64,000 nt of DNA from a virus. Positions 1 to 46,351 of the stretch are shown piece by piece. The translations under genes were made by a program, and so were the position numbers. The notes beneath the pieces were generated by a model. It did not search any database. It was not told where the DNA came from and worked only from the letters and a program-made list of their open reading frames with translations. Location of the stretch: UHGV virus genome UHGV-1363143; one strand, 5' to 3'. Numbering within the stretch: the first letter of the stretch is position 1; every line of letters starts with the position of its first letter.

Positions 1-303
1 CCATCCATTAGGATACTCAGGTATATTAGATTCATCTAATTTAACTACTTTGATGTGAGGCATATCTATAAGCTCTTGAGATAACCATTGTATTCTAAGG
101 TTAACATTAATTTCAGGAATGCCTGATTCTTTACAGATTCTTCTGCTTCTTTCTATATTGTCACTTACTACTACATAAAGTTTTTGAACCTTTGTGGCAG
201 CATTTAATATAGCTGTTAAATGTCCTCTATGTGGAGGAAGGAATTTACCAAAGTAAACTCCAACCTTAGGCATATCATTTAAATTGAAAATTGAACCACT
301 CAT
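1..303 (-). CDS. NMN/NaMN adenylyltransferase domain protein (NadR-like), C-terminus beyond window edge
   Basis: Minus-strand ORF starting with ATG at 303..301. Translation MSGSIFNLNDMPKVGVYFGKFLPPHRGHLTAI... carries the GxFxPxHxGH nucleotidyltransferase motif. Its start directly abuts the pnuC stop. Confidence 0.55.
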   Translation of the reverse strand, partial: MSGSIFNLNDMPKVGVYFGKFLPPHRGHLTAILNAATKVQKLYVVVSDNIERSRRICKESGIPEINVNLRIQWLSQELIDMPHIKVVKLDESNIPEYPNGW

Positions 304-2952: not shown

Positions 2953-3792
2953 TTAGTCATGAACTCCAATTATATCTAGCATTTCTTTACAGATATTAAC
3001 TGTTTCTAGCTCAAGATCGTATTTTTCGCAGATATAAATAGCTGATTTTCTGCTCAACAGGTCTTTAGCCAACGAATCTCTTTCTTCTTTATCTATATAG
3101 CATTGTTCATCTAAAGAATCATATAGTAATTTAAATTTCTTACCAAGTCTTTTGTATACCTTAGGAATATACGATTTTGATACCTCTGCTTCCTCGGCTA
3201 TTTCCGCTTGGCTTTTCCCTTTTATTTTAAGAAGATAAACTCTTCTTTCTTTATCTGTGCAGGCATCTATTAGTTCTAATAAAAGGTAAATAAAGTCAAG
3301 CAAGAACTCTTGAAATACTACTACATCATCTATATCACAATTATCTCCCACTAAATTCAAGAGTTCTATACTTTTCTTATCCGAAGAAGGATTAGGAATT
3401 ATAGAATCTAGCGAATAATTCATCTCATTTCTTAATATGTTATTTTTTTGAGCCTCTAAAGAACGTTTAATCATTCCAAGCTTGGACTCACATACTATAA
3501 ATATCCATGATGACAATCCAGATCTATCTAGATCACATTTATTTACATTTTTAAATATGTGCGCCCATAGCTCATTATGCATATCTTCTAGATCGTATTG
3601 ACCTTTACTCAAAGTATTAATGGCTGGATACCACTTTTTAGATATATCCCACACTAATCTATCATACTCTTCATAAAATATAGTTGTTTCCGGTTCTTTA
3701 CCATCAATAACACACTTCAGAAATTCTTTATTGCTATTAATATTTTTTAAATTCATAATTCTCCTCCCCATTTTACAGACACTATTCTGCAT
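2953..3792 (-). CDS. sigma-70 family RNA polymerase sigma factor-like protein
   Basis: The C-terminus (RVYLLKIKGKSQAEIAEEAEVSKSYIPKVYKRL) resembles the region 4.2 helix-turn-helix. A region-2-like segment lies upstream. Confidence 0.5.
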   Translation of the reverse strand: MQNSVCKMGRRIMNLKNINSNKEFLKCVIDGKEPETTIFYEEYDRLVWDISKKWYPAINTLSKGQYDLEDMHNELWAHIFKNVNKCDLDRSGLSSWIFIVCESKLGMIKRSLEAQKNNILRNEMNYSLDSIIPNPSSDKKSIELLNLVGDNCDIDDVVVFQEFLLDFIYLLLELIDACTDKERRVYLLKIKGKSQAEIAEEAEVSKSYIPKVYKRLGKKFKLLYDSLDEQCYIDKEERDSLAKDLLSRKSAIYICEKYDLELETVNICKEMLDIIGVHD

Positions 3793-6520: not shown

Positions 6521-7243
6521 CTAGTTTTCAATATCTTTTAATATTGCCTCAACAGTTTCTTTTGCTATTGACGCAAGATTGATATCATAAGAAATAGTAT
6601 TAAAATAATCATCATCATTTAATACATTTCTATTTGGATATCTTTTTAAAACAAGTTTATTCTCTCCAATATTGTTTTCTATTTCTTCTAGTAAAATTAT
6701 TGGAGCATTATCTAGCTTCACTACTACTCCATTTGGAAAATTATCATCATTTCTTTTGAAAGTTAATTCTCCTACTATAGTATTAATTACTAATTCTTTT
6801 ACCTCTGCCATATTTTCAATATAATTTTCAAGATCTGTTTTAAATTTTTGCAACTGTTTTGTTCTATCTTCTGTATTTAGTTGCAAAAACATTAATAGGC
6901 TATCAAAATCATATTTATCAATATAACTCATAGTATTGCTCATAATATTGTATGGCAATATTATCATTTTCACATTATCATAACCATCTTCTTTGTTTTT
7001 CGATTTAATTGCATCCTCTATATTATTTGTATATAAGAATTTAGATAAATCACTATATTTATCATAATATATTAGTGCAGTTGCTTTTGGTAACTCATCT
7101 GATTTATTAACTAATTGTTTAACTATAAATTCAATACTATCGTTTAAATATACTGACAGAGTATGAACGTTATTAATTTTTTGTTTAAGTATAGTAACTG
7201 TTCCTATATCTGTATATAATTTCATCTCGATTTTATCTATCAT
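6521..7243 (-). CDS. hypothetical protein
   Basis: 240-aa ORF. Confidence 0.5.
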   Translation of the reverse strand: MIDKIEMKLYTDIGTVTILKQKINNVHTLSVYLNDSIEFIVKQLVNKSDELPKATALIYYDKYSDLSKFLYTNNIEDAIKSKNKEDGYDNVKMIILPYNIMSNTMSYIDKYDFDSLLMFLQLNTEDRTKQLQKFKTDLENYIENMAEVKELVINTIVGELTFKRNDDNFPNGVVVKLDNAPIILLEEIENNIGENKLVLKRYPNRNVLNDDDYFNTISYDINLASIAKETVEAILKDIEN

Positions 7244-10992: not shown

Positions 10993-11673
10993 CTATCCTA
11001 TAAAATAAGTCTTACATTCTAAATCTTTTAAGATATATTGCAAGTCATTGCTATTAGTTAAGAACATGCTATCTATATCTCTCATGGCAAATCCATACTT
11101 CTTTTTTGTATTCCATATAATTTGATTTCCTGAGCCTACTGAACTTAATAATCCATCTTCTTTTTCTCCATCCCATAGTCTTTCATCTTGCTTATACTCC
11201 CCATCAACTATAATATCTACGATTTTAGCTAATCTTCCTAGCTTATCTCTGAATATACTTTCTGGAGTTAAAGCTGAATTAACTATAAGACCTTTACCTA
11301 TATACTTCTTTAGTTCTAAATGAGTATAAATCATAATGTGAAATCCATATTTTTTAAGTTCTTCACACAAAATTAGTAGATTATCTATTTGATCAGTTGG
11401 TTCACCTCCACCAATAGTTATATATTTATTAGGAGCAAATTCATTTATATGTTTAGCCATATCTATTGGATTGTGACTAATTTCTGCTTTTGAAACATCC
11501 CATGTACTGCTGTTAAAACAACCTTTACATGGATTACCTAGCATAGCCTTTTTACATCCTAATAAAAATATCTCTGTTCTATTATTATCATCTGGACTAG
11601 GGCCTGCAGTTTTTACACTCCATCTTACATCCCTCAATAATAATCCATTTAAATCATTGTTAGCCTTGTACAT
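10993..11673 (-). CDS. nrdG: anaerobic ribonucleoside-triphosphate reductase activating protein (NrdG-like radical SAM)
   Basis: GCKKAMLGNPCKGCFNSSTW resembles E. coli NrdG GCVHECPGCYNKSTW. IGGGEPT resembles LSGGDPL, and IIVDGEYKQD...GNQIIW resembles VLVDGKFVQD...SNQVV. Confidence 0.65.
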   Translation of the reverse strand: MYKANNDLNGLLLRDVRWSVKTAGPSPDDNNRTEIFLLGCKKAMLGNPCKGCFNSSTWDVSKAEISHNPIDMAKHINEFAPNKYITIGGGEPTDQIDNLLILCEELKKYGFHIMIYTHLELKKYIGKGLIVNSALTPESIFRDKLGRLAKIVDIIVDGEYKQDERLWDGEKEDGLLSSVGSGNQIIWNTKKKYGFAMRDIDSMFLTNSNDLQYILKDLECKTYFIG

Positions 11674-11686
11674 AGTTTGTTCCTCC

Positions 11687-11896
11687 TTATATTATTGAAT
11701 ATTTCACTATTTGATTTGTTACATCCGTTTCACATGCTGAACAAACATAGATAGTTTTTTTATTACCCTTAGTTAATTTAATTCCTGATGGTGTATTAGT
11801 TCTTCTTAAAGTAAACACATCATTCTCTTTGAATACTACACCTTTACATTTAGGGCATTGTATATATTCATTTTCATTAAGCATATTGATTGCCAT
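11687..11896 (-). CDS. zinc-ribbon small protein
   Basis: 69 aa with CPKC...CSAC pairs. Confidence 0.4.
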   Translation of the reverse strand: MAINMLNENEYIQCPKCKGVVFKENDVFTLRRTNTPSGIKLTKGNKKTIYVCSACETDVTNQIVKYSII

Positions 11897-11947
11897 TGAA
11901 ACTACCTCTTTTCTCTAAATCTTGATAGCAAAAATAGGGAGGAGCTA

Positions 11948-12703
11948 TTAAGCTCCTTGTGCTTGCTCTTGAGCAGAAACTAACCCTTTTAAGTAATTTA
12001 CAAACTCTGAAATGTTTTCAGGCATTAAATAGTTTGTTGTTGGTAAAGCACCATTTGAGAAAGTATTTATATAATTATCCATATCTGCTTCAACTAATCC
12101 ATATTTCTTTTTGAACTCATCTAAATAAGCAAAATCTTCTTTATGTTCATCTAATGCTTCTTCAGTCCATGGATCTTCATAATTCATTAAATTAAAGAAA
12201 TAAGCTTCATTTTCATCTCTGTATAATTCTAAGCCTATACCAAACATAGTAGCAGCTTTTTTAAGAGCATCAGTATTGGCACCTTTAAAGATATTTTCTT
12301 GCTCAGATTGTCCTCCAACTAAACATTGTGCTCCAGGAGCTGTTTTTGAAATTTGATAAAAGCGTCCAGAATCATCTTGTAGATGAACTGTTAATCTACC
12401 TATTACATGAGCAACTGGTTGTTGTGGTTCATATTCAGGTGAATCAAGATTTACTTTCTTTCCATTTACGTACTTTACTTTTATCATCTTAGGCTCACTT
12501 TGTTGGATAAATCTTTCGATTATATCCCATGACCATCCTGTATACCCAAAAGTAGCGTTTAATTTATCAATAACTGCTTGTCCACTTACATATGTTAAGC
12601 TAGTTTTTCCCGCAGGCTTTTGTTTGTGGATATACTCTGGTAATGGAGTTGCAAGAGCTACTTTTAATTCTTTAGGTGTGTTTATTACTTGTAATTCTGA
12701 CAT
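11948..12703 (-). CDS. Rad52/Sak-like single-strand annealing protein (candidate)
   Basis: TDALKKAATMFGIGLELY resembles the Rad52-family TDALKRAxxxFG motif. Confidence 0.5.
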   Translation of the reverse strand: MSELQVINTPKELKVALATPLPEYIHKQKPAGKTSLTYVSGQAVIDKLNATFGYTGWSWDIIERFIQQSEPKMIKVKYVNGKKVNLDSPEYEPQQPVAHVIGRLTVHLQDDSGRFYQISKTAPGAQCLVGGQSEQENIFKGANTDALKKAATMFGIGLELYRDENEAYFFNLMNYEDPWTEEALDEHKEDFAYLDEFKKKYGLVEADMDNYINTFSNGALPTTNYLMPENISEFVNYLKGLVSAQEQAQGA

Positions 12704-13171: not shown

Positions 13172-14277
13172 TAATTATTAGAATGACTTTTCTCCATTTT
13201 TATTGCTGAAGACATTGTAATAAGTACATCTGATTTATATTTAATAGTGTCCATAACACTCTTTAAGAAATAGAATCTATTTTTAGTTTCATCATAAACT
13301 TCATATAGATTTACATTTTCTCCTTCTGGAGTAACATAATTCATTACTGCAAGAACTCCAGCTTTCTTTCTAATAGTTTCATTAGCACCTTCTAGGCTAG
13401 CAAATTTAACTCTTTCAATTAAACCTTCAGTATCCTTATTTGATAAGCTTTCGAATAAAGACTTAGTATCTACAAAGTTAACCCATATTTTTTCTCTTAA
13501 AGCATTTAATTTGGCTATAGTTTTTTTCATAGCTCCTTCTTGCATGTCTGATTCAATAACTATCTTATCTGATTCTTCAATAACTTCTTTTCTGAAGTTT
13601 TCCCATTCTTCATCTACAAACTTACTTTTAATAGCTTGTATAGCTTCAGAATACTTTATACTAGTAGTTGGCATCTTAAATAAAGTTTCTATTGTTTCAG
13701 TAACTTCTGGAGTATCAACTACTTCTTTTGTAGTAGCTTCTTCTGCTTTCTTTCTAGTTGAAGTTTTTCTACTCTTTGTTTTAGTCTCTTTTTTAGTTTC
13801 AGCTTTAGCTTTAGTAGCCTTCTTTTCTTCAACTGCTTCTTTTTTAGTTTCAGCTTGAGCTGCAGTTGGTTCTTCAACTTTAGTTTCTTTTATATCCTTA
13901 ATCATTTCTTCAGTAGAAACTTCTTTAGCCTTTTCCTTAACTTCTTCCTTAGTGTCAGCTTTAGCTTCAACTGGTGCTGGAGTTGGAGAAGTCGCTGGCT
14001 TTACTGGTGCTGGTACTGCCCCTGGTTTTGGTACGGCCATTCCTGGTGCTTTAGGTACTCCTGGGAAACTTGGTTTACCTATAGGTGCAGCTGGTTTACT
14101 TGGTACTGCTCCTGGTGCTACAGCTATATTGAATGGTGCTGCTGGTGCAGGTGTTCCCTTAGGTGCAAATGGATTATTCGTGCTATTAGTCATCTTAGTT
14201 CCTCCTGATGTTGCGAATGGATTAACTCCTCCGCCGATTCCTGGTTTATTTGCTTTAACGTTATCTAAAAAACTCAT
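13171..14277 (-). CDS. hypothetical protein with Pro/Ala/Lys-rich low-complexity N-terminal half
   Basis: 368 aa with PAPAAP, VPKPGAVPAPVKP and K/E-rich linker segments ahead of a structured C-terminal domain. Confidence 0.5.
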   Translation of the reverse strand: MSFLDNVKANKPGIGGGVNPFATSGGTKMTNSTNNPFAPKGTPAPAAPFNIAVAPGAVPSKPAAPIGKPSFPGVPKAPGMAVPKPGAVPAPVKPATSPTPAPVEAKADTKEEVKEKAKEVSTEEMIKDIKETKVEEPTAAQAETKKEAVEEKKATKAKAETKKETKTKSRKTSTRKKAEEATTKEVVDTPEVTETIETLFKMPTTSIKYSEAIQAIKSKFVDEEWENFRKEVIEESDKIVIESDMQEGAMKKTIAKLNALREKIWVNFVDTKSLFESLSNKDTEGLIERVKFASLEGANETIRKKAGVLAVMNYVTPEGENVNLYEVYDETKNRFYFLKSVMDTIKYKSDVLITMSSAIKMEKSHSNN

Positions 14278-14335
14278 AATTCTTGTCTCCTTTATCTTAA
14301 TTTTTATATAATATTTCTTGTCTTAAATTTACTGT

Positions 14336-35002: not shown

Positions 35003-35371
35003 TTATGCAGCTCTTTTTACAACTAATAAATCCCTTGCTCCTCCTAGAGGATCGTTGCCTTGGTACTCTATACCAAAAGCTAAGTATTTAGTATTTGAGC
35101 TTTCTTTTAATTTATTAAGATTATGAACTATTCTTTCTAGTCCTTCACTATTTATAGGCTCTTTTATTGTAGATGACTTCTTACCACAGATAGGTTTATC
35201 ATAAGAAGCATATATGTATAAACTTTCTATTTTAGTATGAGGACACTTTAATTCTTTTTTAATTTCATTTATTTCTTTTTCTAAATTTCCTAATGTTAAA
35301 TCACTAATATTTTTTATCATAGCGAAACCTCCAATACGAAACATAAAAAAGCACAAAAGGACACCAACCAT
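35003..35371 (-). CDS. hypothetical protein
   Basis: 122-aa ORF. The true start is probably the internal MIKNIS. Confidence 0.4.
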   Translation of the reverse strand: MVGVLLCFFMFRIGGFAMIKNISDLTLGNLEKEINEIKKELKCPHTKIESLYIYASYDKPICGKKSSTIKEPINSEGLERIVHNLNKLKESSNTKYLAFGIEYQGNDPLGGARDLLVVKRAA

Positions 35372-35880
35372 ACGAAGATATCCTGTTATGCTTTAATTTG
35401 CTTATAGTTTAAAATTAATTATTCTTTATTTCTCTTTGAGTAATTCTTTTAATTCTTGACCTAGATATCTTATGTAACATTCTTTTATCTTTTGATCTGA
35501 GCTTTGTATTTTGAACTACTATCTTTTCATAAAAATCTAAAGCAGTTGCTTCTTTCGAATTATTCTGTTTAAATAAATCCATAATGCTATCAATCCTTTC
35601 TTTATTCAGAAATTAATTTTGCATTTACATATTTATTATCTAACTTTTTCGTCATTTACCTCATAAATATAGTTAAACTTCTTTTACAAATATTTTTCCA
35701 TTGGGAGCAGTATAAAATATATCTCTTTTAAATGACATAAGATAAGAAACTCCTGGAATAACTAATACATTCATATCTGTAATAATAGTATTTAATTCAA
35801 AAGTTGCAATCACTTCTCTTGTATCTTTTTTAAAAATAACTAAAATTTGCATTATTCAACCTCAATTTATAATTATTCTC

Positions 35881-35909
35881 TTTTATATAAAAAACCCAGG
35901 GCCTTTCGG
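35881..35909 (-). terminator. rho-independent terminator closing the tRNA array (CCCAGG...CCUGGG then UUUU)
   Basis: GC-rich 6-bp stem immediately 3' of tRNA-Asn on the minus strand, followed by U4. Confidence 0.6.
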
Positions 35910-35915
35910 ACACCT

Positions 35916-35990
<75 letters not shown>

Positions 35991-36785
35991 CTGTAGTTCC
36001 ATAATTCCAGCGTCCGTATGGACCTGGAGATCTCCTTCTATCTTAGATAGATGAGCTAATGTAAGCACCACATTTTATAATCCCTTGCATGGATTGGGCA
36101 GGCACCATTATTTTTACATGCATGGTTGCATTGACCTAGCTTACTTTTTGTTCTTTCGGTCTTATTGATTATTACTATCCCACTCGTGAATAGCATATTT
36201 GTTTGAAACAATCGCCTGCACAATGCAAGCCCCAGAAAGAGTTTATCTTTCAAAATTAATGCAAGGTGGGGTGGCGTATCCCACATCTCTAACCATAACA
36301 ATATATGTAGTATAGACTGCCTGTTTCTACTTCTTGCATTTTTATATCTAATTGCTTACTTGAAAAACACGAGCTAATTACATTAGCTACTAAAACTCAT
36401 AAGCATAAATATACCTTCTTATAAGAGTTCCTAATCTATGTCTAAATAAGAAGTATATTAGTTTCATAAGGATATAGATTAGGTTTCACCTTACTTTTTA
36501 TTATTGCTTGAAAAAACCCTAAAAATTACTAAGCAATATATATATTCTTCTCACTTCCGAAACCAGCACTCCATGTCCTTCGAATATATAGTTTTTTTGT
36601 TTCGCTGATCTGGTCCTCTATGCAAAACTTTAAAGGGAAATTTGCTTACCGCCACAGTTCCTTCCTGCTCGTCCATAAGCTATTAAGTAGATAAATTACT
36701 CCTACTTAACTAGTGCGTCTCCAGTGAGCATAGTAAATCAGGCCAATCAAATCAGCTAAATACCAGAGGCTTGAGAGGTTCTATT
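35991..36785 (-). ncRNA. ~0.8-kb ORF-free, GC-enriched structured spacer between tRNA-Asn and tRNA-Thr; candidate large ncRNA (GOLLD/ROOL-like class hypothesis)
   Basis: No credible ORF. The only track ORF, 36056..36301, is Cys/His-poor and has no RBS. GC content is well above that of the coding background. The block is embedded in a co-directional tRNA array. Confidence 0.3.
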
Positions 36786-36859
36786 TGGAGCTCCTACTCA
36801 GAATCGAACTGAGAACAGAAGATTACAAGTCTACCGTTTTACCTTTAAACTATAGGAGC
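36786..36859 (-). tRNA. tRNA-Thr (UGU)
   Basis: Acceptor GCUCCUA/UAGGAGC, T-arm CUCAG-UUCGAUU-CUGAG, anticodon loop CUUGUAA. There is one U-U mismatch in the anticodon stem. CCA encoded. Confidence 0.6.
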
Positions 36860-37015
36860 ATATAATACTTTCGGTGTGCTACAGAAATCTAAGTTTCTGT
36901 TAATAGGCAAGGCTGTCTATATCAGGTATTCAGTAATTATGTACACTTTTAACTGAACCATACTATATATCCCTACACGCTACTCTTAACTATAAGAACA
37001 CCGAAAATATTATAA

Positions 37016-37090
37016 TGGTACTCCATGGGGGACTCGAACCCCCGATACACGATAGAAAGTCGTGTGGCTTAACCACTTGCCGAATGGAGC
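37016..37090 (-). tRNA. tRNA-Glu (UUC), tentative
   Basis: Acceptor GCUCCAU/AUGGAGU, T-arm GGGGG-UUCGAGU-CCCCC, perfect anticodon stem CACGA/UCGUG, loop CUUUCUA. Position 37 is an unusual U. CCA encoded. Confidence 0.55.
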
Positions 37091-37169
37091 ATAATTTGTG
37101 CTATCTCTTTTAGCTTGTACTTCGCCAAGGATGATAGCTATCCTTATCTGTACAAATTACAGATTTCTC

Positions 37170-37240
37170 TGGTGCAGATTGCTGGAATCGAACCAACCCT
37201 TATAATCTTATAGAAAACGCTCTACCTTGAGCTAATCTGC
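37170..37240 (-). tRNA. tRNA-like gene with intact acceptor, D- and T-arms but no foldable canonical anticodon arm
   Basis: Acceptor GCAGAUU/AAUCUGC plus ACCA, D-arm GCUC-AAGGUA-GAGC, T-arm GUUGG-UUCGAUU-CCAGC. The anticodon region UUUUCUAUAAGAUUAUAAGG contains a UAUAAG duplication, and no 5-bp stem with a 7-nt loop can be formed. Confidence 0.4.
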
Positions 37241-38269
37241 ATATTATATTTCCAGAGCTTTCAGATCCTATCTCTGGTACTCAACTTTTGCAGCATTATT
37301 GATTCTCTGCTTATCCACATTCTCTTGAATGTATTGAGTTATGCCTGCCTTGTTTAATGAGTGGCTTATCTCATCTAATAGTACACTACTCTACACCATT
37401 GATTATATCAACCTTGCGGGCTGTTCAGGCTGCTACCCCTTATACGCTCTCCGATATAGAACAATCAAGCTTTTGCGAAGCTATCATGCGCTTCATTCAC
37501 TTTTCAGTGTGAAGCATTAAGACACTTTCATGCACTACGAGGATGAACTTTCGCTTTTATATAGAATTAATATCTGTAAATTCTTAAATATTGTTTTATT
37601 TCCCAAAACATATAGCTTAAATTCATCATTCATTAAATTTTCAAACTGTAGATGTGTCATCCTATCAGCTCGCTTCCCTTTTGAGGAAGTAAATACTGGA
37701 CACCTACATAGCTTTCACTCAACTAAGTTACTAACTGGTAATAAATCATACTCTAGGATACCTCCGTCTCTCAACTTCTAAGGTCCTATTTCATTTTTAT
37801 TACTGGCCAATGCTCTTGCCTGTTAAACTCGAACTACTAACCTTCTGCTATAAATAGTTTATTTCATTAGTTTTGGTGTGTGCTATCTGATTACCAGTCA
37901 GAAACTCCTTCAGAGAGTATATCCCCTACTTTCTTACCAGCGTTGCCCATAAGCGAGCTTTCGCACCTAACTTATAAAACCTTATCCAATAATCGTCTTT
38001 ATCTCTTCCGCCTACTGAATAACATTTAAATTTATGCAGATTGCTTGAATTAACCTAATATTTCAAGGCGAGAATTTGTTAAATTCCCTTTACGCACATC
38101 ACTGTACGCTATTCATGTCAAGCCATGTTTACTTATTTTTTTTATAGAACCTAGTACAGATTCTTGTATGTAATTCCTACCTCTATTACATACTAGGCTC
38201 TTGCCTACCGATGTTTTCCTTATTTAAAACTAAGTACTGAAAAGAAAACTCATAACCAAAAATCGTACT
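37241..38269 (-). ncRNA. ~1.0-kb ORF-free GC-enriched structured spacer between tRNA-like gene and tRNA-Lys; candidate large ncRNA(s)
   Basis: Only a weak 83-aa plus-strand ORF with no RBS falls here. Composition matches the other large spacer and lies within the tRNA operon. Confidence 0.3.
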
Positions 38270-38345
38270 TGGTGAAGGTAGAAGGGTTTGAACCTTCGGC
38301 CCCAGCATTAAAAGTGCTATGCTCTACCAACTGAGCTATACCTTC
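38270..38345 (-). tRNA. tRNA-Lys (UUU)
   Basis: GAAGGUAUAGCUCAGUUGGUAGAGC..., anticodon loop CUUUUAA, T-loop UUCAAAC, CCA encoded. Confidence 0.9.
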
Positions 38346-38352
38346 ATATTAT

Positions 38353-38429
38353 TGGTAGTGGATATAAGAGTCGAACTTATCACCTTCTGCGTATCAGGCA
38401 GATGCTCTAACCAAATGAGCTAATCCACT
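38353..38429 (-). tRNA. tRNA-Ile (GAU)
   Basis: AGUGGAUUAGCUCAUUUGGUUAGAGC..., anticodon loop CUGAUAC, CCA encoded. Confidence 0.9.
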
Positions 38430-38435
38430 ATATTA

Positions 38436-38520
38436 TGGTGGGAACTGATGGAGTCGAACCACCCGAGCTAAAGCAACAGATTTACAGTCTGCCCCGCTAC
38501 CATCTACGGTATAAATTCCC
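38436..38520 (-). tRNA. tRNA-Tyr (GUA), type II with long variable arm
   Basis: Acceptor GGGAAUU/AGUUCCC, anticodon loop CUGUAAA, long variable arm, T-loop UUCGACU, CCA encoded. Confidence 0.8.
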
Positions 38521-38547
38521 GTATTGACATTGTTAATTGGCTAAATT

Positions 38548-38577
38548 ATTATAATTGTAAATGTACTATACTTACAA
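38548..38577 (-). promoter_or_regulatory. candidate sigma-A-type promoter (TTGTAA, 18-nt spacer, TATAAT) reading into tRNA-Tyr/Ile/Lys
   Basis: Minus strand -35 TTGTAA (plus 38572-38577) and -10 TATAAT (plus 38548-38553), located 30-60 nt upstream of tRNA-Tyr. Confidence 0.35.
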
Positions 38578-38614
38578 AGAACTAGATCAATCTTCGGATT
38601 GGTCTTTTTCTTAT

Positions 38615-38701
38615 TGGCAGGGGCTGTAGGATTCGAACCTACGTGGTGTTGTGCACAATGGTTTTGGAGACCACCGCCCTCGACCTCTAGGCAAAACCCC
38701 T
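38615..38701 (-). tRNA. atypical 87-nt tRNA: type II (long variable arm) architecture but anticodon CCA (Trp reading)
   Basis: Acceptor AGGGGUU/AGCCCCU plus G plus CCA, T-arm GUAGG-UUCGAAU-CCUAC, anticodon stem GUGGU/ACCAU with loop CUCCAAA. A 15-nt extra arm (UGUGCACAACACCAC) follows. Alternatively GUGGU pairs with the distal ACCAC. Confidence 0.45.
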
Positions 38702-38836
38702 GTAAATCTCCCGATTAGTTTAAAGACATTTATGGGACTGGTCATTAGAGAGGTCTTATGTATAAATTAAAACGTTATGCATAAATATATTATGTTAACA
38801 TCTATAAAAAGACTACTGATTTGAAAAACTTTTTTA

Positions 38837-38923
38837 TGGCGGAGAGTCTGGGACTCGAACCCAGAAGCCATTACTGACCAACAGTTTTCAAGACTGTCTG
38901 ACTACCAATTATCACAACTCTCC
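38837..38923 (-). tRNA. tRNA-Ser (UGA), type II
   Basis: Acceptor GGAGAGU/ACUCUCC plus G plus CCA, anticodon arm ACAGU-CUUGAAA-ACUGU, long variable arm, T-loop UUCGAGU. Confidence 0.85.
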
Positions 38924-39021
38924 ATGTTTATAGGAGAAAACGAAATAGGTGATAGGAATTGAACCTACACTTACTGCCATCCCTATCTCTAGCTGGCCTT
39001 GCTTCATTCTCCTGTTGCAAC

Positions 39022-39096
39022 TGGCGGAGGTGGAAGGGATTGAACCTTCGAATGATGGAATCAAAATCCATTGCCTTACCACTTGGCGACACCTCT
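39022..39096 (-). tRNA. tRNA-Gln (UUG)
   Basis: AGAGGUGUCGCCAAGUGGUAAGGC, closely matching the bacterial tRNA-Gln D-arm. Anticodon loop UUUUGAU, T-loop UUCAAUC, A1-C72 mismatch, CCA encoded. Confidence 0.8.
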
Positions 39097-39297
39097 ATAT
39101 AAAATGGCAATTTTACCGTTTGCCAAACGTTCTATGGTTTATACAAAAACTCATATCGTAAAATTTAAACGGGCTTAAGTGCCCTAAATTCTGGCATTTC
39201 ACCACGGGTATTTAGCAACCCAGGATTTTTATTATTGAATCTAATAAATTAAGATCCGTTCTAAGCACTGCAAAAAAATCTTAAAAAAATTTCGCTT

Positions 39298-39373
39298 TGG
39301 TCGGAGTTACAGGACTCGAACCTGTGATCTCATGGTCCCAAACCATGCACCTTACCATCTAGGCCAAACTCCG
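39298..39373 (-). tRNA. tRNA-Pro (UGG)
   Basis: CGGAGUUUGGCCUAGAUGGUAAGG..., anticodon loop UUUGGGA, T-loop UUCGAGU, CCA encoded. Confidence 0.9.
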
Positions 39374-39382
39374 ATATATAAA

Positions 39383-39474
39383 TGGCGGAGGACACAGGAT
39401 TCGAACCTGCGGAGGAACTTTCGTCCCTCGAATGCTTAGCAAGCACCTGCCTTAAACCTCTCGGCCAATCCTCC
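39383..39474 (-). tRNA. tRNA-Ser (GCU), type II
   Basis: Acceptor GGAGGAU/GUCCUCC plus G plus CCA, anticodon loop UUGCUAA, long variable arm CGAGGGACGAAAGUUCCUCCG, T-loop UUCGAAU. Confidence 0.85.
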
Positions 39475-39564
39475 ATATTAATAGCTCATTTTGGTCAGTT
39501 GAGCTAAACTGTAGTCTATAAGACTAAAAAATGAACATTGGAATTTAATATTGAATTGAATTAG

Positions 39565-39641
39565 TGGCGACTCACAAGGGGATCGAACCCTCGACCTCTG
39601 GCGTGACAGGCCAGCACTCTAACCATCTGAGCTAGTGAGCC
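39565..39641 (-). tRNA. tRNA-Asp (GUC)
   Basis: GGCUCACUAGCUCAGAUGGUUAGAG..., anticodon loop CUGUCAC, T-loop UUCGAUC, CCA encoded. Confidence 0.9.
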
Positions 39642-39647
39642 ATATTA

Positions 39648-39736
39648 TGGTGTCGTGAGAAGGATTCGAACCTCCAACCACCTGAGTCTTGTTAATGGAG
39701 CTCCCTCAGTGCGTATACCAATTCCGCCACCACGAC
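39648..39736 (-). tRNA. tRNA-like gene with 18-nt anticodon loop (11-nt insertion); anticodon undetermined
   Basis: Acceptor GUCGUGG/UCACGAC plus A plus CCA, D-arm GCG-GAAUUGGUAUA-CGC, T-arm GGAGG-UUCGAAU-CCUUC. A perfect 5-bp stem CUGAG/CUCAG encloses GGAGCUCCAUUAACAAGA. Confidence 0.4.
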
Positions 39737-39860
39737 ATATCTATGTTTCTATATTATGTGCCTTCTAAAAAAAAGACTACTCCTGAAAAATGTTTTTTAG
39801 ATTTTTCGTCGTACTTCATTATTACAAGCTATATTTTTCTTATACACATTTGAAAATAAA

Positions 39861-39893
39861 AAAGCTGGGAATTTTTTATCCCAGCCTTATATT
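39861..39893 (-). terminator. rho-independent terminator after the peptidoglycan hydrolase gene (GCUGGGA-loop-UCCCAGC then U-run)
   Basis: 7-bp GC-rich stem, 8-nt loop, then a U8 tract on the minus strand immediately after the stop codon of 39892..40869. Confidence 0.6.
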
Positions 39894-40869
39894 ACAGCTT
39901 TGCTAATAAATCATTAGCTATTGCATTAATGTTTCTTGACCATGTGGTACCTTCGCAATATTTTGTATTTACATTCCATATGCTAGGTCCATTATAATGA
40001 GCTCCTCCTTCAGTAAGGTAAGCAGTATTAATAAGATTAGCTATATAATTTAAGCTCTCTCCCCAATTATCAAATCTTCTCCATGAGTTACCTTTTTTAA
40101 CTCCACCAATATTATTATATGTTCTAGCTAAATAAGATCTTCCATGTCCTGATTCTTCCGAGTTAAGTGCTATTAAGAATATTGCATTTACATTGTATTT
40201 CTTTTCTGCATAATAATATGCTTTTGATAATGATTGTAATGCACTGCCCTCTAACATTTTATGAATTTGAGACTCTGATAAATTACTTAATTCTCTCAAG
40301 TTATAAGGATTATAATGAGGAATTCCATCTACTTGTTTTTGTACTTTTGGTTCCTTATATACTTCATATGGTGGGTTTTCTTGATATTGTTCAACTAATG
40401 ACATATCAATAAAACCTTCTTTGCCATTATAATTAATTTTTAACCAGTTCCATTGTCTTTCAATTATCTCAAAAGTCATACCTTTTCTAAATAAAAGAAT
40501 TACTTCTGAATCATAATTAGGTTCTGTTCTAAAACGAGAATAGTCAGCGATAACTTGTCCATATTTTTGATGTTCAGTTTTTAATCTTTGCTCTTCTTCT
40601 AACCTTTCTTGCTCTAGTCTTTTTTGTTCAACCATTTCTAAATGTTTCTCATAAATGTTTTTGGGACTCATAAAAATAGGATTTGTAAGAGATTGGTCTT
40701 CTATTGATAGCTCTATTGCTGCAGGTTCTAATTTATTATTAATACGCATGTTATTACTTGCAGTATCAAAACAATGTACTGGCAAAAATGTAGATGTATA
40801 TGCATATAAACCAGCTAAGCATTTAGCTAAATGTGTCATAAAAACACTCCTTTCTGATTTCTCCCTCAT
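39892..40869 (-). CDS. peptidoglycan hydrolase (glucosaminidase-domain plus SH3-like; endolysin or virion lysin candidate)
   Basis: C-terminal FLIALNSEESGHGRSYLARTYNNIGGVK resembles the glucosaminidase AxxESGxG motif. A central SH3-like segment GMTFEIIERQWNWLKINYNGKEGFID is present, and the N-terminus is coiled-coil. Confidence 0.6.
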   Translation of the reverse strand: MREKSERSVFMTHLAKCLAGLYAYTSTFLPVHCFDTASNNMRINNKLEPAAIELSIEDQSLTNPIFMSPKNIYEKHLEMVEQKRLEQERLEEEQRLKTEHQKYGQVIADYSRFRTEPNYDSEVILLFRKGMTFEIIERQWNWLKINYNGKEGFIDMSLVEQYQENPPYEVYKEPKVQKQVDGIPHYNPYNLRELSNLSESQIHKMLEGSALQSLSKAYYYAEKKYNVNAIFLIALNSEESGHGRSYLARTYNNIGGVKKGNSWRRFDNWGESLNYIANLINTAYLTEGGAHYNGPSIWNVNTKYCEGTTWSRNINAIANDLLAKL

Positions 40870-42987: not shown

Positions 42988-43551
42988 ATGTTAAATACAG
43001 TTAAAAAGCCATCATTATTATGTAGAGTAGCAATCGGAATTGATAATTTCATAGAGAGACTATTTGCAGTAGAAAGTGATCCTGAATTCGAATTATGCAT
43101 ACCAGATAGTATTCTTCATAGAACTGAACTTATATGTGAATACATTAAAACTGAAAAAGGATATGATTTCGAAGTTGAAGGATTTCTTATGCTTTTATAT
43201 TTAGACTTCATAAAGAATTGTATTAAAAGCTACAATCCACGCAAAGTATTTAAGCAATTAACTAAGGAACACTATCAAGATCAATATTTGACTGCTGTTA
43301 ACTGTGGTGTCCCTGAGATAATACCTATTATTAAATACAGCAAAACTAATCTAGTTATCAGTATGGCCGAAGAAGACGTTAGGAAGGGCCAACTAATACT
43401 AGATGAATTATATGACTTATATGGATATAGAATTCCTTTCTCCAAACTTCTTGAAAACCTATGGATAGGATTCATTGAAGATTACAAAACTGGAGAAAAT
43501 AAAAGAGCTTATTACTCAATAGTAAAAATTCTTAAAGAATGCATTGATTAA
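42988..43551 (+). CDS. hypothetical protein (first gene of plus-strand block)
   Basis: 187-aa ORF with RBS AAAGGGG. Confidence 0.5.
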   Translation: MLNTVKKPSLLCRVAIGIDNFIERLFAVESDPEFELCIPDSILHRTELICEYIKTEKGYDFEVEGFLMLLYLDFIKNCIKSYNPRKVFKQLTKEHYQDQYLTAVNCGVPEIIPIIKYSKTNLVISMAEEDVRKGQLILDELYDLYGYRIPFSKLLENLWIGFIEDYKTGENKRAYYSIVKILKECID

Positions 43552-43665
43552 GCTCCCTTGAATATGCGTTGTATTTTTCGATTCTTTTCGAAAAAACATT
43601 GCTTTTATAATAATTTATAGGTACAATGTAGATACAACGTATATGCAAAAAAGCTTAGGGAGGTA

Positions 43666-44670
43666 ATGTTAATGTCAAAGAATTCTAAGAAGTATGTTTT
43701 AGTACTTGACTTGGGTAAAGGTGTAGCGAAAGGTTTAGGCTGTGAAATCACAGATAGTATACCTAATCCAGAATCATTAAAAAAATCTATGTTTGAAACA
43801 AAGAGTTATGATTTAAATAAAGGTTATACTGAATTACAAGGAAATTCTCATAAAGTAGATTTCAATGGTAGCTCAGTAATTTTAGGTGAACAAGGCGTAG
43901 ATCGTAGCTTTGAAACTAGTAAAACTACTCCACTTCATCAAATGTGTGCTTACACATTAATTAGCCAATATCTTGAACCTGATACTAAGGATAATGAAAT
44001 ATATCTTGTTCTTGCTTGTCCTATAACAGTATTAAAGAGTGATAAAGCTAAGCAAGAATATAAAAACCTTATTAAGGGTGATGGACCTATATCAATAACT
44101 GTTAATGATAAATATTATGAATTTGAAATTAAAGATATCTTAATTAAGGCTGAAAGTTCAGGAGTATTATATTTAATGCCTGAAGAATTTAAAGATAAAA
44201 AAATTCTAGTGGTAGACTTTGGTGGTCTTAATATGACTAATACTATCTTTACTAATGGAGTATGTGTTAATCCTGAAAATGATAGATTTGCTGAAGAATG
44301 GGGATCTGTTGAATTAATCAATAAAGTAAGTAAACACTTAACAGATTATTCTAAAGGTAATATTGTAGATTTCCAAACTTCTGAAGAAGCTTTAAATAGA
44401 GGTCACTTATTAGAATATGGAAAACCTGATTTAGCTTCTACTGAATATATAGAAAGAGCTAAACAAGAGTTTATAGATGACTCTCTTAAAAAATTAGCTA
44501 GACATAATGTAAGAACAAAGAACTTAGATAAAATAATCTATATTGGAGGAACTAGTTCTTACTTAAAAGACCAAATAAAAGCGTTACCTAATGGTCAAAT
44601 CACAGATAATCCTCAATGGTCTTCCGTAGAAGGCTTATTAAAAATCGCTATTAAAAAATATATTAAATAA
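43666..44670 (+). CDS. parM: actin-like ATPase of the ParM/StbA/Alp family (type II partition NTPase)
   Basis: Phosphate-1-like KYVLVLDLGKG, phosphate-2-like LVVDFGGLNMTNTIF, adenosine-like IIYIGGTSSY. The likely start is ATG at 43672, after the AGGGAGG RBS. Confidence 0.65.
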   Translation: MLMSKNSKKYVLVLDLGKGVAKGLGCEITDSIPNPESLKKSMFETKSYDLNKGYTELQGNSHKVDFNGSSVILGEQGVDRSFETSKTTPLHQMCAYTLISQYLEPDTKDNEIYLVLACPITVLKSDKAKQEYKNLIKGDGPISITVNDKYYEFEIKDILIKAESSGVLYLMPEEFKDKKILVVDFGGLNMTNTIFTNGVCVNPENDRFAEEWGSVELINKVSKHLTDYSKGNIVDFQTSEEALNRGHLLEYGKPDLASTEYIERAKQEFIDDSLKKLARHNVRTKNLDKIIYIGGTSSYLKDQIKALPNGQITDNPQWSSVEGLLKIAIKKYIK

Positions 44671-44672
44671 CC

Positions 44673-44990
44673 ATGTCTAAAAGACCAGGCTCATTTGTTT
44701 TCACATTTAGTAAAAAGAACGAAGATGTGAAAAATATCATTGACAATAAAAAGAAATCCGATAAAAATTTTGTAAAAACTGACTACATGTGTGCTGCAGT
44801 TAGATTTTATGAAAAATATAAGGATAACTTTAATGATAACTCTTCTCTTAGCGAGAATGATGTAATAAGAATAGTCAATGAAATATTAAAAAACAATCAA
44901 ATTAGTGTTGATAGTGATGTGAATGTAATTAATACTTCACTTAATTTAAACACAGATCACATATCAGATAGCGATTTAGAGGAAGATTAA
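44673..44990 (+). CDS. small protein immediately downstream of parM-like gene; ParR-like centromere-binding adaptor candidate
   Basis: 105 aa. Sits 2 nt after the parM stop, with a basic N-terminus and an acidic C-terminus. Confidence 0.35.
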   Translation: MSKRPGSFVFTFSKKNEDVKNIIDNKKKSDKNFVKTDYMCAAVRFYEKYKDNFNDNSSLSENDVIRIVNEILKNNQISVDSDVNVINTSLNLNTDHISDSDLEED

Positions 44991-45018
44991 AGCACTGTAT
45001 AATTCAGTGCTTTTTTGA
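44991..45018 (+). terminator. rho-independent terminator (AGCACUG-loop-CAGUGCU then U6)
   Basis: 7-bp stem, 7-nt loop and a T-run directly after the ParR-like stop codon. Confidence 0.6.
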
Positions 45019-45025
45019 TATAATT

Positions 45026-46351
45026 ATGAATAATAGAGAGGTGATAAATGTGGACGAATACTTATTTAGTTTTATTATAGAAAATATAAATAAAGATAAG
45101 GAACTTAAAGAATTTTATGATAAATATTATTATGAATATTCTGAGATACCTTATGAGGATTACATAAAAGAATTATGCATTGATAATCCTGAATTCTTTA
45201 AATCTGAATTTGATGAGCATAGAAAAAAGATTTTAAAAGCCTATATAAACACTCGCTCAAGATTAAATAAAAAAGCGGTAGTTATAGGTAGACTTATAAA
45301 CTTTCCTTTAGCATCTGAATCTAAAAAAACTACCTTGAAATCAATTGTTGACAACGAATTGAAGTTATTACTAATTGAAAATATAAAAGAATTTTTTGAA
45401 GTAAATTCTAAAATCACTGAAAGACCTTTATCTTTAGATGGAATGTACACTACTAAAGAAAAAATGACTTTATATGATGCTGATTCTACATTAGATATTA
45501 ACGATAGAAAAGCCTATATGAGTGAAGAGAAATATAAACGTCAGATAGGCATTGTTCAACCTCTATTCTTTGCAAACCCTACTACTGAAGTAATATTTGT
45601 AAAAAAAGGTGAAAAGTCATATCTTAAGTCAAAATCAATGGATACTAAAGACCAAAAGATAATGGACTTTTTAATAGAAGAATATAAACAAGTAATGTAC
45701 TATCCAGATCAAGTTTTAATTTATCCTATTCATCAAATATCAAAGCTGATATATAACAGAAAGGGTAAACAATATTTAGACTTAACTAGGGATAGATTAG
45801 CTAAAATAGGTAACTTAGGTCAGATAGTTTTTAATGATTCTATAATTAATAAAAAAGATGCACAAGGTAAGTTAATAGATCCTAAAGATAATTACGAAAT
45901 AGTAAGTTTTTTCGATATTCAATTCTTCACTAATGAATTAGGTGTACGTTTTTGTAAAATACTTATGTCTAGATCTATTGAATATGATTTAAAAACTAGC
46001 AATACAATAAAGCTATACAAACATAAGATTGAGCAAATAAAAAATGACTTTACAGCTATCTTTGTAAACTTTATTCAGTCTCAGCGTATTAACTCTTTAA
46101 TTTCTGATGAAGATGAGGCTATAGTACCATATAAAGTAATTAAAACTGGAATAAGACTTCCTAATGCAAGAAGTAAAGTTAAGAATTTAAAAGTAATTGA
46201 AGAATCTTTAGAAGAACTAGTTAATATGAACTTCTTAATTGATTCTTATGAAGTTAAAAATACTTATATTAAATTGCATTTCATACCATTTGGATATATA
46301 GAGCTAAAAGAACTTAAACTTGATTCTAAGGCTAAAGAGTTAGAAATCTAA
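45026..46351 (+). CDS. hypothetical protein upstream of iteron array
   Basis: 441-aa ORF. Confidence 0.5.
   Translation: MNNREVINVDEYLFSFIIENINKDKELKEFYDKYYYEYSEIPYEDYIKELCIDNPEFFKSEFDEHRKKILKAYINTRSRLNKKAVVIGRLINFPLASESKKTTLKSIVDNELKLLLIENIKEFFEVNSKITERPLSLDGMYTTKEKMTLYDADSTLDINDRKAYMSEEKYKRQIGIVQPLFFANPTTEVIFVKKGEKSYLKSKSMDTKDQKIMDFLIEEYKQVMYYPDQVLIYPIHQISKLIYNRKGKQYLDLTRDRLAKIGNLGQIVFNDSIINKKDAQGKLIDPKDNYEIVSFFDIQFFTNELGVRFCKILMSRSIEYDLKTSNTIKLYKHKIEQIKNDFTAIFVNFIQSQRINSLISDEDEAIVPYKVIKTGIRLPNARSKVKNLKVIEESLEELVNMNFLIDSYEVKNTYIKLHFIPFGYIELKELKLDSKAKELEI

Follow-up and report, generated by a model that had tools for sequence, protein, structure and literature searches.

A modular string of candidate small RNA cassettes in the tRNA operon of a GOLLD-bearing phage

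GOLLD and skipping-rope are conserved phage RNAs whose functions are, to our knowledge, not known, and the structures of GOLLD determined by cryo-electron microscopy are recent. In bacteriophage T4, two further non-tRNA RNAs, species I and II, are small and stable, are co-transcribed and processed with tRNAs, and have no known function. According to a figure legend, both are encoded in the tRNA gene region of that phage (PMC2330249, Fig. 1 legend). GOLLD (RF02032) is large, non-coding, phage-encoded, and located in tRNA arrays, and ROOL (~580 nucleotides, nt) adjoins tRNAs in phages and prophages (PMC5737381); co-transcription of both with these tRNAs is considered possible (PMC5737381; PMC12286853; PMC12990946). 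Here, a 64,000-nt stretch of the virus genome UHGV-1363143 was analyzed (hereafter the window, to which all coordinates refer unless stated otherwise). Its minus strand contains an array of 14 tRNA genes (35926-39736, ARAGORN), and the element under study is the spacer between tRNA-Thr and tRNA-Asn of this array. This spacer is best explained as at least six separable small RNA cassettes arranged head to tail within a polycistronic tRNA/non-coding RNA (ncRNA) operon, which would give rise to small stable phage RNAs acting in trans; the probability of this reading is put at roughly 0.7.

The locus shares features with each of the described systems and differs from all of them. A true member of GOLLD is present in the same operon (~38128-37263), whereas the Thr-to-Asn spacer does not match the GOLLD model and is modular instead of forming one fold. 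Skipping-rope (RF02924; Weinberg et al., 2017, PMC5737381) is represented by a full-length member with a hairpin at the position where the family usually has its terminator, but this member accounts for only 83 of the 785 nt of the spacer, is embedded in a tRNA operon, and has a degenerate U-tract that makes read-through likely. The genomic habit of ROOL (RF03087) is alike, but no covariance match to it was obtained in the window or its relatives at the thresholds used. With T4, as far as the figure legend goes, the locus has in common that non-tRNA RNAs lie among the tRNA genes of a large lytic phage, a likeness in layout; T4 has two such RNAs, whereas at least six cassettes and a GOLLD RNA are found here.

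The annotated phage collection contained no close relative of the window, and relatives were reached via the endolysin-like protein that precedes the array. A search of IMG/VR with the flanking endolysin and peptide deformylase returned one genome, and a large protein collection yielded the contigs L010, L012, L016, and L017. The resulting syntenic series comprises L003/L008 (a 241-kb viral contig), L010 (153 kb), L012, L016, the more distant L017, and L020, which is a near-identical metagenomic copy. Alignment of the Thr-to-Asn spacers and cassette-by-cassette BLAST, applied to five related contigs, defined a mosaic in which the cassette order A-B-C-D-E-F-G is constant and the content varies. 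The window carries A, B, D, E, F, and G without C; L008 possesses all seven; L010 has A, B, C, D, F, and G with E partly replaced; L012 is reduced to A, C, F, and G; and L016 retains the core of A together with C, D, E, and G. Spacer length ranges from ~510 to 1180 nt, and in phages of Clostridium perfringens F occurs alone. Since up to ~60% of the sequence can be lost, skipping-rope (cassette D) is a separate family, and F stands alone elsewhere, a single giant fold is unlikely. The cassettes are gained and lost independently, are non-coding, mostly contain helices kept by compensatory changes, and are more conserved than the neighboring coding DNA. Their junctions carry short repeats (ATAAGCAtTTCtCTCTAAA / ATAAcAAATTTCCTCTAAA), possibly by chance, and the motif GCTTATGR at cassette ends occurs four times in the window, no more often than expected (4.9). 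BLAST revealed no matches to these cassettes in the GOLLD regions of the relatives.

Rfam models were run against the whole window at gathering thresholds, against the array (35800-39900) at E <= 1, and against the interval 35990-36790 alone at E <= 10. The only family found at threshold inside the interval was skipping-rope. Cassette F (36061-36161, minus strand) is a ~100-nt doubly pseudoknotted RNA for which five helices are proposed: P1 (36161-36158 with 36136-36133), a long-range helix (36144-36139 with 36066-36061), P2 (36131-36128 with 36121-36118), a pseudoknot formed by the P2 loop (36126-36122 with 36108-36104), and P3 (36098-36096 with 36084-36082). Across seven sequences, all 154 cells of its 22 pairs hold standard pairs and six of the pairs have changed on both sides; slid controls were paired in 26-47% of the cells and contained no compensatory change. 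F is 96-99% identical in L008, L010, and L012; copies with 82-85% identity lie in two 39-kb siphophages of C. perfringens, vB_CpeS-17DYC and XP41-N3, and in a viral contig of 39.6 kb. No Rfam family matches F, even in the E <= 10 scan of the interval, and its known distribution is narrow. The pattern GTAAGCTAGGT...GGTGCTTAC retrieved two real loci from IMG/VR plus three chance matches in coding DNA (L005-L007), a core pattern found L004 only, and a two-block pattern L003 and L004 only. Two exact-pattern scans of 185,579 representative bacterial genomes found no copy, and a metagenome scan returned only L020 and L021 (a 241-kb relative). BLAST against phage records yielded only the two C. perfringens phages and against plasmids only a match to tRNA-Asn, and a covariance model of F, run over 266 kb of sequence, picked up neither additional nor divergent copies.

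The two cassettes at the ends of the spacer are retained in all five relatives. Cassette A (36640-36785, minus strand) consists of a leader and a ~95-nt core (~36737-36642) that forms two helices, a hairpin (UUAAGUAG/CUACUUAA) and a closing helix (GCUUAU.../...UAAGC). Its 20 pairs are formed in 97% of the cells with two compensatory changes, compared to 25-53% and none in slid controls. The leader adjoins a tRNA 3' end in all relatives, the preceding tRNA being Glu and not Thr in L016; A gave no Rfam match (E <= 10). Cassette G (36001-36056, minus strand) contains two stable hairpins that abut the 5' end of tRNA-Asn (minimum free energy -21.5 kcal/mol, z = -3.63). All cells of its 18 pairs are paired, two of them with compensatory changes, and G retains 91% identity in L016, compared to only 70-75% for coding DNA.

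Cassette D (36258-36340, minus strand) is the skipping-rope RNA, which scored 58.2 bits against a gathering threshold of 36.7 (E = 3e-13) over the full model (1-80 of 80). The alignment includes the closing stem (AAUGCAAG/CUUGCAUU), two hairpins (GUAGA...UCUAU and GUGGG...CCCAC), and GGCAG, GAGAUG, and GCC as conserved nucleotides; the variable middle hairpin is poorly formed, with four non-standard pairs, and is the site of an 18-nt insert in L008 and L010. D is also found in L016 (60.8 bits), where a G-C pair of the closing stem is changed to A-U, and is absent from L012. It is followed by cassette E (36167-36257, minus strand), which comprises three hairpins, among them a terminator-like stem (GCUUGCAUUGUGCAGGC, 36230-36214) identified by a terminator scan. 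A Rho-independent terminator at the 3' end is characteristic of the skipping-rope family (PMC5737381). The tail of the stem found here (GAUUGUUUCA) is poor in U and is lost in L016, and such a degenerate U-tract after skipping-rope fits read-through inside an operon. The window, L008, and L016 carry E, L012 lacks it, and in L010 a fragment resembling a tRNA 3' end (GTTCAAATCCTGTCCGTCCAACACC) takes the place of part of it. One compensatory pair falls into the third hairpin of E, and D and E together contain three. Skipping-rope RNAs are reported to be associated with one protein family whose genes lie close by (PMC5737381). Precomputed Pfam assignments that cover +/-10 kb in L010 and L012 include no DUF3800.

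The remaining two cassettes differ in how well a fold is supported. Cassette B (36350-36639, minus strand) has 290 nt, is AT-rich (29.7% G + C), and occurs in the window, L008, L010, and L020 but not in L012 and L016. It is 91% identical to its counterparts in L008 and L010, where indels of 1-2 nt break its open reading frames (ORFs), and RNAalifold found no compensatory pair in three near-identical sequences. Cassette C (~185 nt; 13772-13956 in L008), located between B and skipping-rope, is also present in L010, L012, and L016, and contains six compensatory pairs. The C loci gave no Rfam match at the gathering threshold in L008, L010, and L012, and at E <= 0.01 in L016.

Outside the tRNA operon, F is found in a different setting. 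In vB_CpeS-17DYC (L001), a strong promoter-like site (2825-2854; 11 of 12 positions matching, with the TG of an extended -10 element) is followed by a leader of ~150 nt, F, an 8-bp intrinsic terminator (3112-3131), and TTACTACATTTACTACA iterons in at least five direct and inverted copies. This promoter-to-terminator layout means that F can be expressed within a stand-alone small-RNA unit. The unit lies in an unannotated gap of ~860 nt (L001 2825-3470, corresponding to 35055-35700 of the record), which from its sequence looks like an iteron-type replication origin beside a small-RNA gene. Genes of Gam-like and Erf-like recombination proteins lie just downstream of the gap. In the phages of C. 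perfringens, the 3 kb to each side of F contain no tRNA. In these phages F resembles DUF3800-I, drum, and FuFi-1 (PMC5737381) in being a compact, conserved, pseudoknotted RNA that is followed by an intrinsic terminator and is not a 5' untranslated region. However, F does not match the Rfam models of these three families, and its fold with five helices and two pseudoknots is distinct.

Comparisons with the relatives also revealed how conservation is distributed over the array. Relative to L016, flanking coding DNA is 70-75% identical and GOLLD 74%, compared to 83-91% for the cassettes A, D, E, and G; tRNA-Glu is 78% identical and tRNA-Thr is absent. Relative to L008, the values are 84-92% for flanking coding DNA, 91-98% for all cassettes, 95% for GOLLD (62% of its length aligned), and 76% for tRNA-Glu and tRNA-Thr. 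The counterparts of tRNA-Thr (36786-36859) and tRNA-Glu (37016-37090) in L008 and L010 are 76% identical, with 91-98% identity in the surrounding spacers; the two tRNAs seem to have been swapped for other alleles while the ncRNA cassettes stayed. Near tRNA-Asn, L012 has a divergent Asn-like tRNA (~14176-14320) followed by a second, partial 3' half that is identical to tRNA-Asn of the window, and L020 (~60-130, minus strand) has a hybrid tRNA-Asn 3' half with a different terminator. These rearranged regions and fragments in L010, L012, and L020 may be read as signs of frequent recombination within the array. Three other long minus-strand spacers of the array are 93-97% conserved, namely those between Gln and Pro (39097-39297, 201 nt), Thr and Glu (36860-37015, 156 nt), and Ser and Gln (38924-39021, 98 nt). 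None of the three matched an Rfam family, and the 98-nt spacer, which contains the T-arm-like GGTTCAATTCC, may be a decayed tRNA.

A sequence-only reading had earlier described this spacer as a 795-nt gap, enriched in G + C and free of plausible coding sequences, with many local helices, and had proposed a single giant RNA of the GOLLD or ROOL type. The gap is real, and the tRNAs on both sides are encoded on the minus strand: tRNA-Thr (UGU; 36786-36859; ARAGORN, Rfam tRNA 65.3 bits) forms its 5' boundary on the RNA, and tRNA-Asn (GUU; 35926-36000; ARAGORN, Rfam 65.2 bits), the last gene of the array, its 3' boundary. Its size is 785 nt (36001-36785), however, as a start at 35991 takes in 10 nt of tRNA-Asn. 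The G + C enrichment is likewise real but about half as large as claimed, with 35.8% in the spacer and 30.4% in the window instead of ~40% and ~28%. This corresponds to ~2 standard deviations above the mean of 785-nt windows outside the array (mean 29.9%, standard deviation 2.8%, maximum 37.8%), and it is unevenly distributed, with 41-45% at both ends and 29.7% in the central 290-nt block. On the transcribed strand, the fold energy of the whole spacer relative to dinucleotide shuffles is modest (z = -1.65) and does not mark the entire interval as a single strongly folded block. The local helices were borne out, several of them with compensatory changes in relatives. ARAGORN and the Rfam tRNA model (RF00005) found no tRNA or pseudo-tRNA inside 36001-36785. 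The longest ORFs on the transcribed strand code for 81 amino acids (36056-36301, TTG start) and 41 amino acids (36551-36676, ATG start); as supposed, neither is a plausible coding sequence. Both frames are broken by stops or frameshifts in relatives, and the interval therefore is non-coding.

The proposed class membership fared differently. No match of the interval to GOLLD, ROOL, HEARO, OLE, or tmRNA was obtained even at E <= 10. ROOL matched neither the window (gathering score) nor the array (E <= 1), the interval (E <= 10), or the relatives at the thresholds used; HEARO, OLE, and tmRNA matched in none of the three Rfam scans, and ARAGORN reported no tmRNA. GOLLD was rejected as a candidate for 35991-36785, where the RF02032 gathering score of 150 was not reached and the scan of the array at E <= 1 matched the neighboring locus alone. 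A covariance-model scan of 35900-38300 had been proposed, and it is within this range that a GOLLD-class RNA was found, in the neighboring spacer (37263-37708, 171.8 bits); the hunch is right for the operon and wrong for the spacer. A check of conservation and covariation among relatives had also been suggested, and it showed most cassettes to have compensatory pairs and to be more conserved than flanking coding DNA. The interval thus is non-coding structured RNA within a phage tRNA operon, as had been surmised, but it is not a single large structured RNA, its parts coming and going independently among close relatives and one of them being skipping-rope.

The GOLLD RNA (37263-38128, minus strand) occupies the other long gap of the 14-tRNA array of this phage-like genome, between tRNA-Lys and a tRNA-like element, and thus lies outside the flagged interval. 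Its 3' domain (37708-37263) aligned to the complete model (1-416 of 416; E = 1.6e-46) with a score above the gathering threshold. A conserved 5' domain (~38128-37709) was delimited by alignment: the ~420 nt located 5' of the Rfam match align in five relatives, which results in a total length of at least 866 nt in this comparison at the sequence level. In described GOLLD RNAs a less conserved 5' domain precedes the 3' domain, for a total of ~800 nt or more (PMC12286853). GOLLD is retained in the array of all relatives, with scores of 160-172 bits in L008, L010, L012, and L017 and of 139 bits, just below threshold, in L016. A 140-nt leader in front of it (38129-38269) is kept only in the closest relatives. 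Located 22 nt past the 3' end of GOLLD is the tRNA-like element (37170-37240, minus strand), which ARAGORN designated as tRNA-Tyr (ata) and which reached only 34.5 bits with the Rfam tRNA model. Its acceptor, D, and T arms are normal and CCA is encoded, but the anticodon arm is aberrant. The element also follows GOLLD in L008, L010, L012, and L016 (Rfam 33-37 bits; tRNA-??? according to ARAGORN in L012), and with 89-96% identity across relatives it is more conserved than the true tRNAs for Glu and Thr. It may serve GOLLD as an attached handle for processing or as a tRNA mimic. At the other end of the operon, an intrinsic-terminator-like hairpin (35889-35918, minus strand; CCCAGG...CCUGGG followed by U6; -15.5 kcal/mol) was recognized by reading the sequence and would end the tRNA/ncRNA operon; the consensus terminator scan missed it because its loop is longer than 8 nt.

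According to the mechanism proposed here, a single precursor would comprise the tRNAs, GOLLD, and the cassettes, with its 3' end at the terminator downstream of tRNA-Asn. Cleavage at the flanking tRNAs by RNase P and RNase Z would free the spacer, and the freed cassettes would then act as separate stable small RNAs in trans during infection, in parallel to GOLLD in the adjacent spacer and to RNA species I and II of T4. With low confidence, the RNAs of this operon are suggested to bind proteins of the host or the phage, or else the translation apparatus, in the course of infection. Several points weigh against the string of separate small RNAs. Co-transcription, processing, and the separate existence of the cassettes are all deduced from the sequence, and cuts by RNase P and RNase Z would first give one molecule of 785 nt in which the cassettes could work joined. 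The covariation stems from about five lineages that are mostly 85-98% identical, so that independent events are few and B shows none; with so few lineages the covariation counts are supportive, not conclusive. The high conservation could partly result from recent recombination instead of selection. In addition, we know of no component with a known function, skipping-rope and GOLLD included.

That the joined molecule is the functional form, i.e., one ornate RNA of ~0.8 kb that represents a new GOLLD/ROOL-like class with A, F, and G as core and B, C, D, and E as optional peripheral parts, would agree with the size and context of the spacer, with the predicted tRNA boundaries from which processing would release 785 nt in one piece, and with the retention of A and G in five of five relatives and of F in four. 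GOLLD, too, accommodates regions that vary and tRNAs that are embedded in it (PMC12286853; PMC12990946). This is nevertheless improbable: no large-RNA family of Rfam matches even at E <= 10, none of the supported helices connects two cassettes, relatives dispense with up to ~60% of the length (only A, C, F, and G remain in L012, and F is missing from L016), D belongs to a small RNA family that was defined on its own and has a terminator stem of its own, F occurs alone in other phages, and the z-score of the whole spacer is only -1.65. The hairpins could instead be cis-acting elements that serve as entry, blocking, or folding-insulation sites for RNases during maturation of the flanking tRNAs. 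The position of G directly at the 5' end of tRNA-Asn, its fold as the most stable local one (z = -3.63), and its retention in every relative agree with such a role, as do the leader of A, which follows a tRNA 3' end in all relatives (even in L016 with Glu before it), and the conservation of 93-98% in other short array spacers. We regard it as unlikely all the same, as it leaves skipping-rope unexplained, F also occurs without a tRNA within 3 kb in the C. perfringens phages, and B to F can be deleted with the flanking tRNAs intact.

A largely non-functional spacer, made up of decayed tRNA and ncRNA remnants and hitch-hiking DNA that is similar through recent ancestry or recombination, would account for the background G + C content and missing covariation of B, the tRNA-3'-like fragment in E of L010, the hybrid tRNA-Asn 3' halves of L012 and L020, and the junction repeats ATAAGCAtTTCtCTCTAAA / ATAAcAAATTTCCTCTAAA, which fit illegitimate recombination. 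It is very improbable given that all substitutions in the 22 pairs of F, and nearly all in A and G, keep pairing, that the cassettes exceed both coding DNA and GOLLD in conservation against the most distant relative, and that F is shared with an unrelated type of phage at 82-85% identity. Least credible is the encoding of one or more small proteins, for instance by the 81-codon ORF at 36056-36301: this TTG-start frame and the 41-codon ATG frame do lie on the transcribed strand, but stops or frameshifts interrupt both of them in L008, in L016, and in the phages of C. perfringens, and the longer one overlaps skipping-rope and the pseudoknotted RNA F.

The carrier of the operon is a low-GC phage of ~240 kb. 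Its host probably is a Clostridium, because the closest cellular homolog of the endolysin is from Clostridium sp. PHROG matches in the window include topoisomerase II subunits, a helicase, peptide deformylase, and endolysin, and relatives encode ParA (PF01656/PF10609) and an actin-like ALP_N protein (PF17989) upstream of the endolysin (1465-7169 in L010). The PHROG set and the partition genes of the relatives therefore indicate a large phage or a phage-plasmid. In the window, the syntenic ORF at 43666-44670 (334 amino acids; region ~42988-46351, plus strand) probably codes for the actin-like protein. The ParA and actin-like genes suggest either plasmid-like partitioning, which would make the virus a phage-plasmid, or a system for segregation or positioning like that of jumbo phages. 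Two further observations were made in relatives. In L017, a match resembling the twister-P1 ribozyme (6950-7010; 63.0 bits, gathering threshold 67.2) lies between tRNAs of the GOLLD-containing array, which adds a further kind of structured RNA to arrays of this type. In L014, whose endolysin is 73% identical, the endolysin gene is followed not by a tRNA array but by a gene (11287-12426) whose product, a zinc-dependent phospholipase C that carries a PLAT domain, resembles the alpha-toxin of C. perfringens.

The GOLLD and skipping-rope RNAs described here are new members of known families, and no large-RNA family includes the interval as a whole. F is a candidate for an undescribed motif of narrow distribution, as are A and C with less certainty. 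Tentatively, and in a judgment that could easily go the other way, F and probably A and C may represent undescribed classes of structured phage RNA, F a horizontally mobile RNA gene cassette, and the tRNA array a platform for the expression and shuffling of ncRNA cassettes. If so, F would move between very different phages, residing in the tRNA/GOLLD operon in a phage of ~240 kb and in an origin-proximal promoter-to-terminator unit in 39-kb C. perfringens siphophages. Besides GOLLD and skipping-rope, the exchangeable cassettes would include F, A, and C as well as a twister-like element in one relative. With its small and defined pseudoknotted fold, F is tractable for probing, structure determination, and partner pull-downs. 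For the annotation of phage genomes, long and seemingly empty spacers in tRNA arrays should be scanned module by module and not as one candidate giant RNA. The most useful aspect is the combination found in this operon together with its natural presence/absence variants: GOLLD, skipping-rope, and at least two unnamed RNAs supported by covariation are united in one operon, and the window without C, L012 without B, D, and E, and L016 without B and F form a natural deletion series in which the role of each RNA in infection can be addressed.

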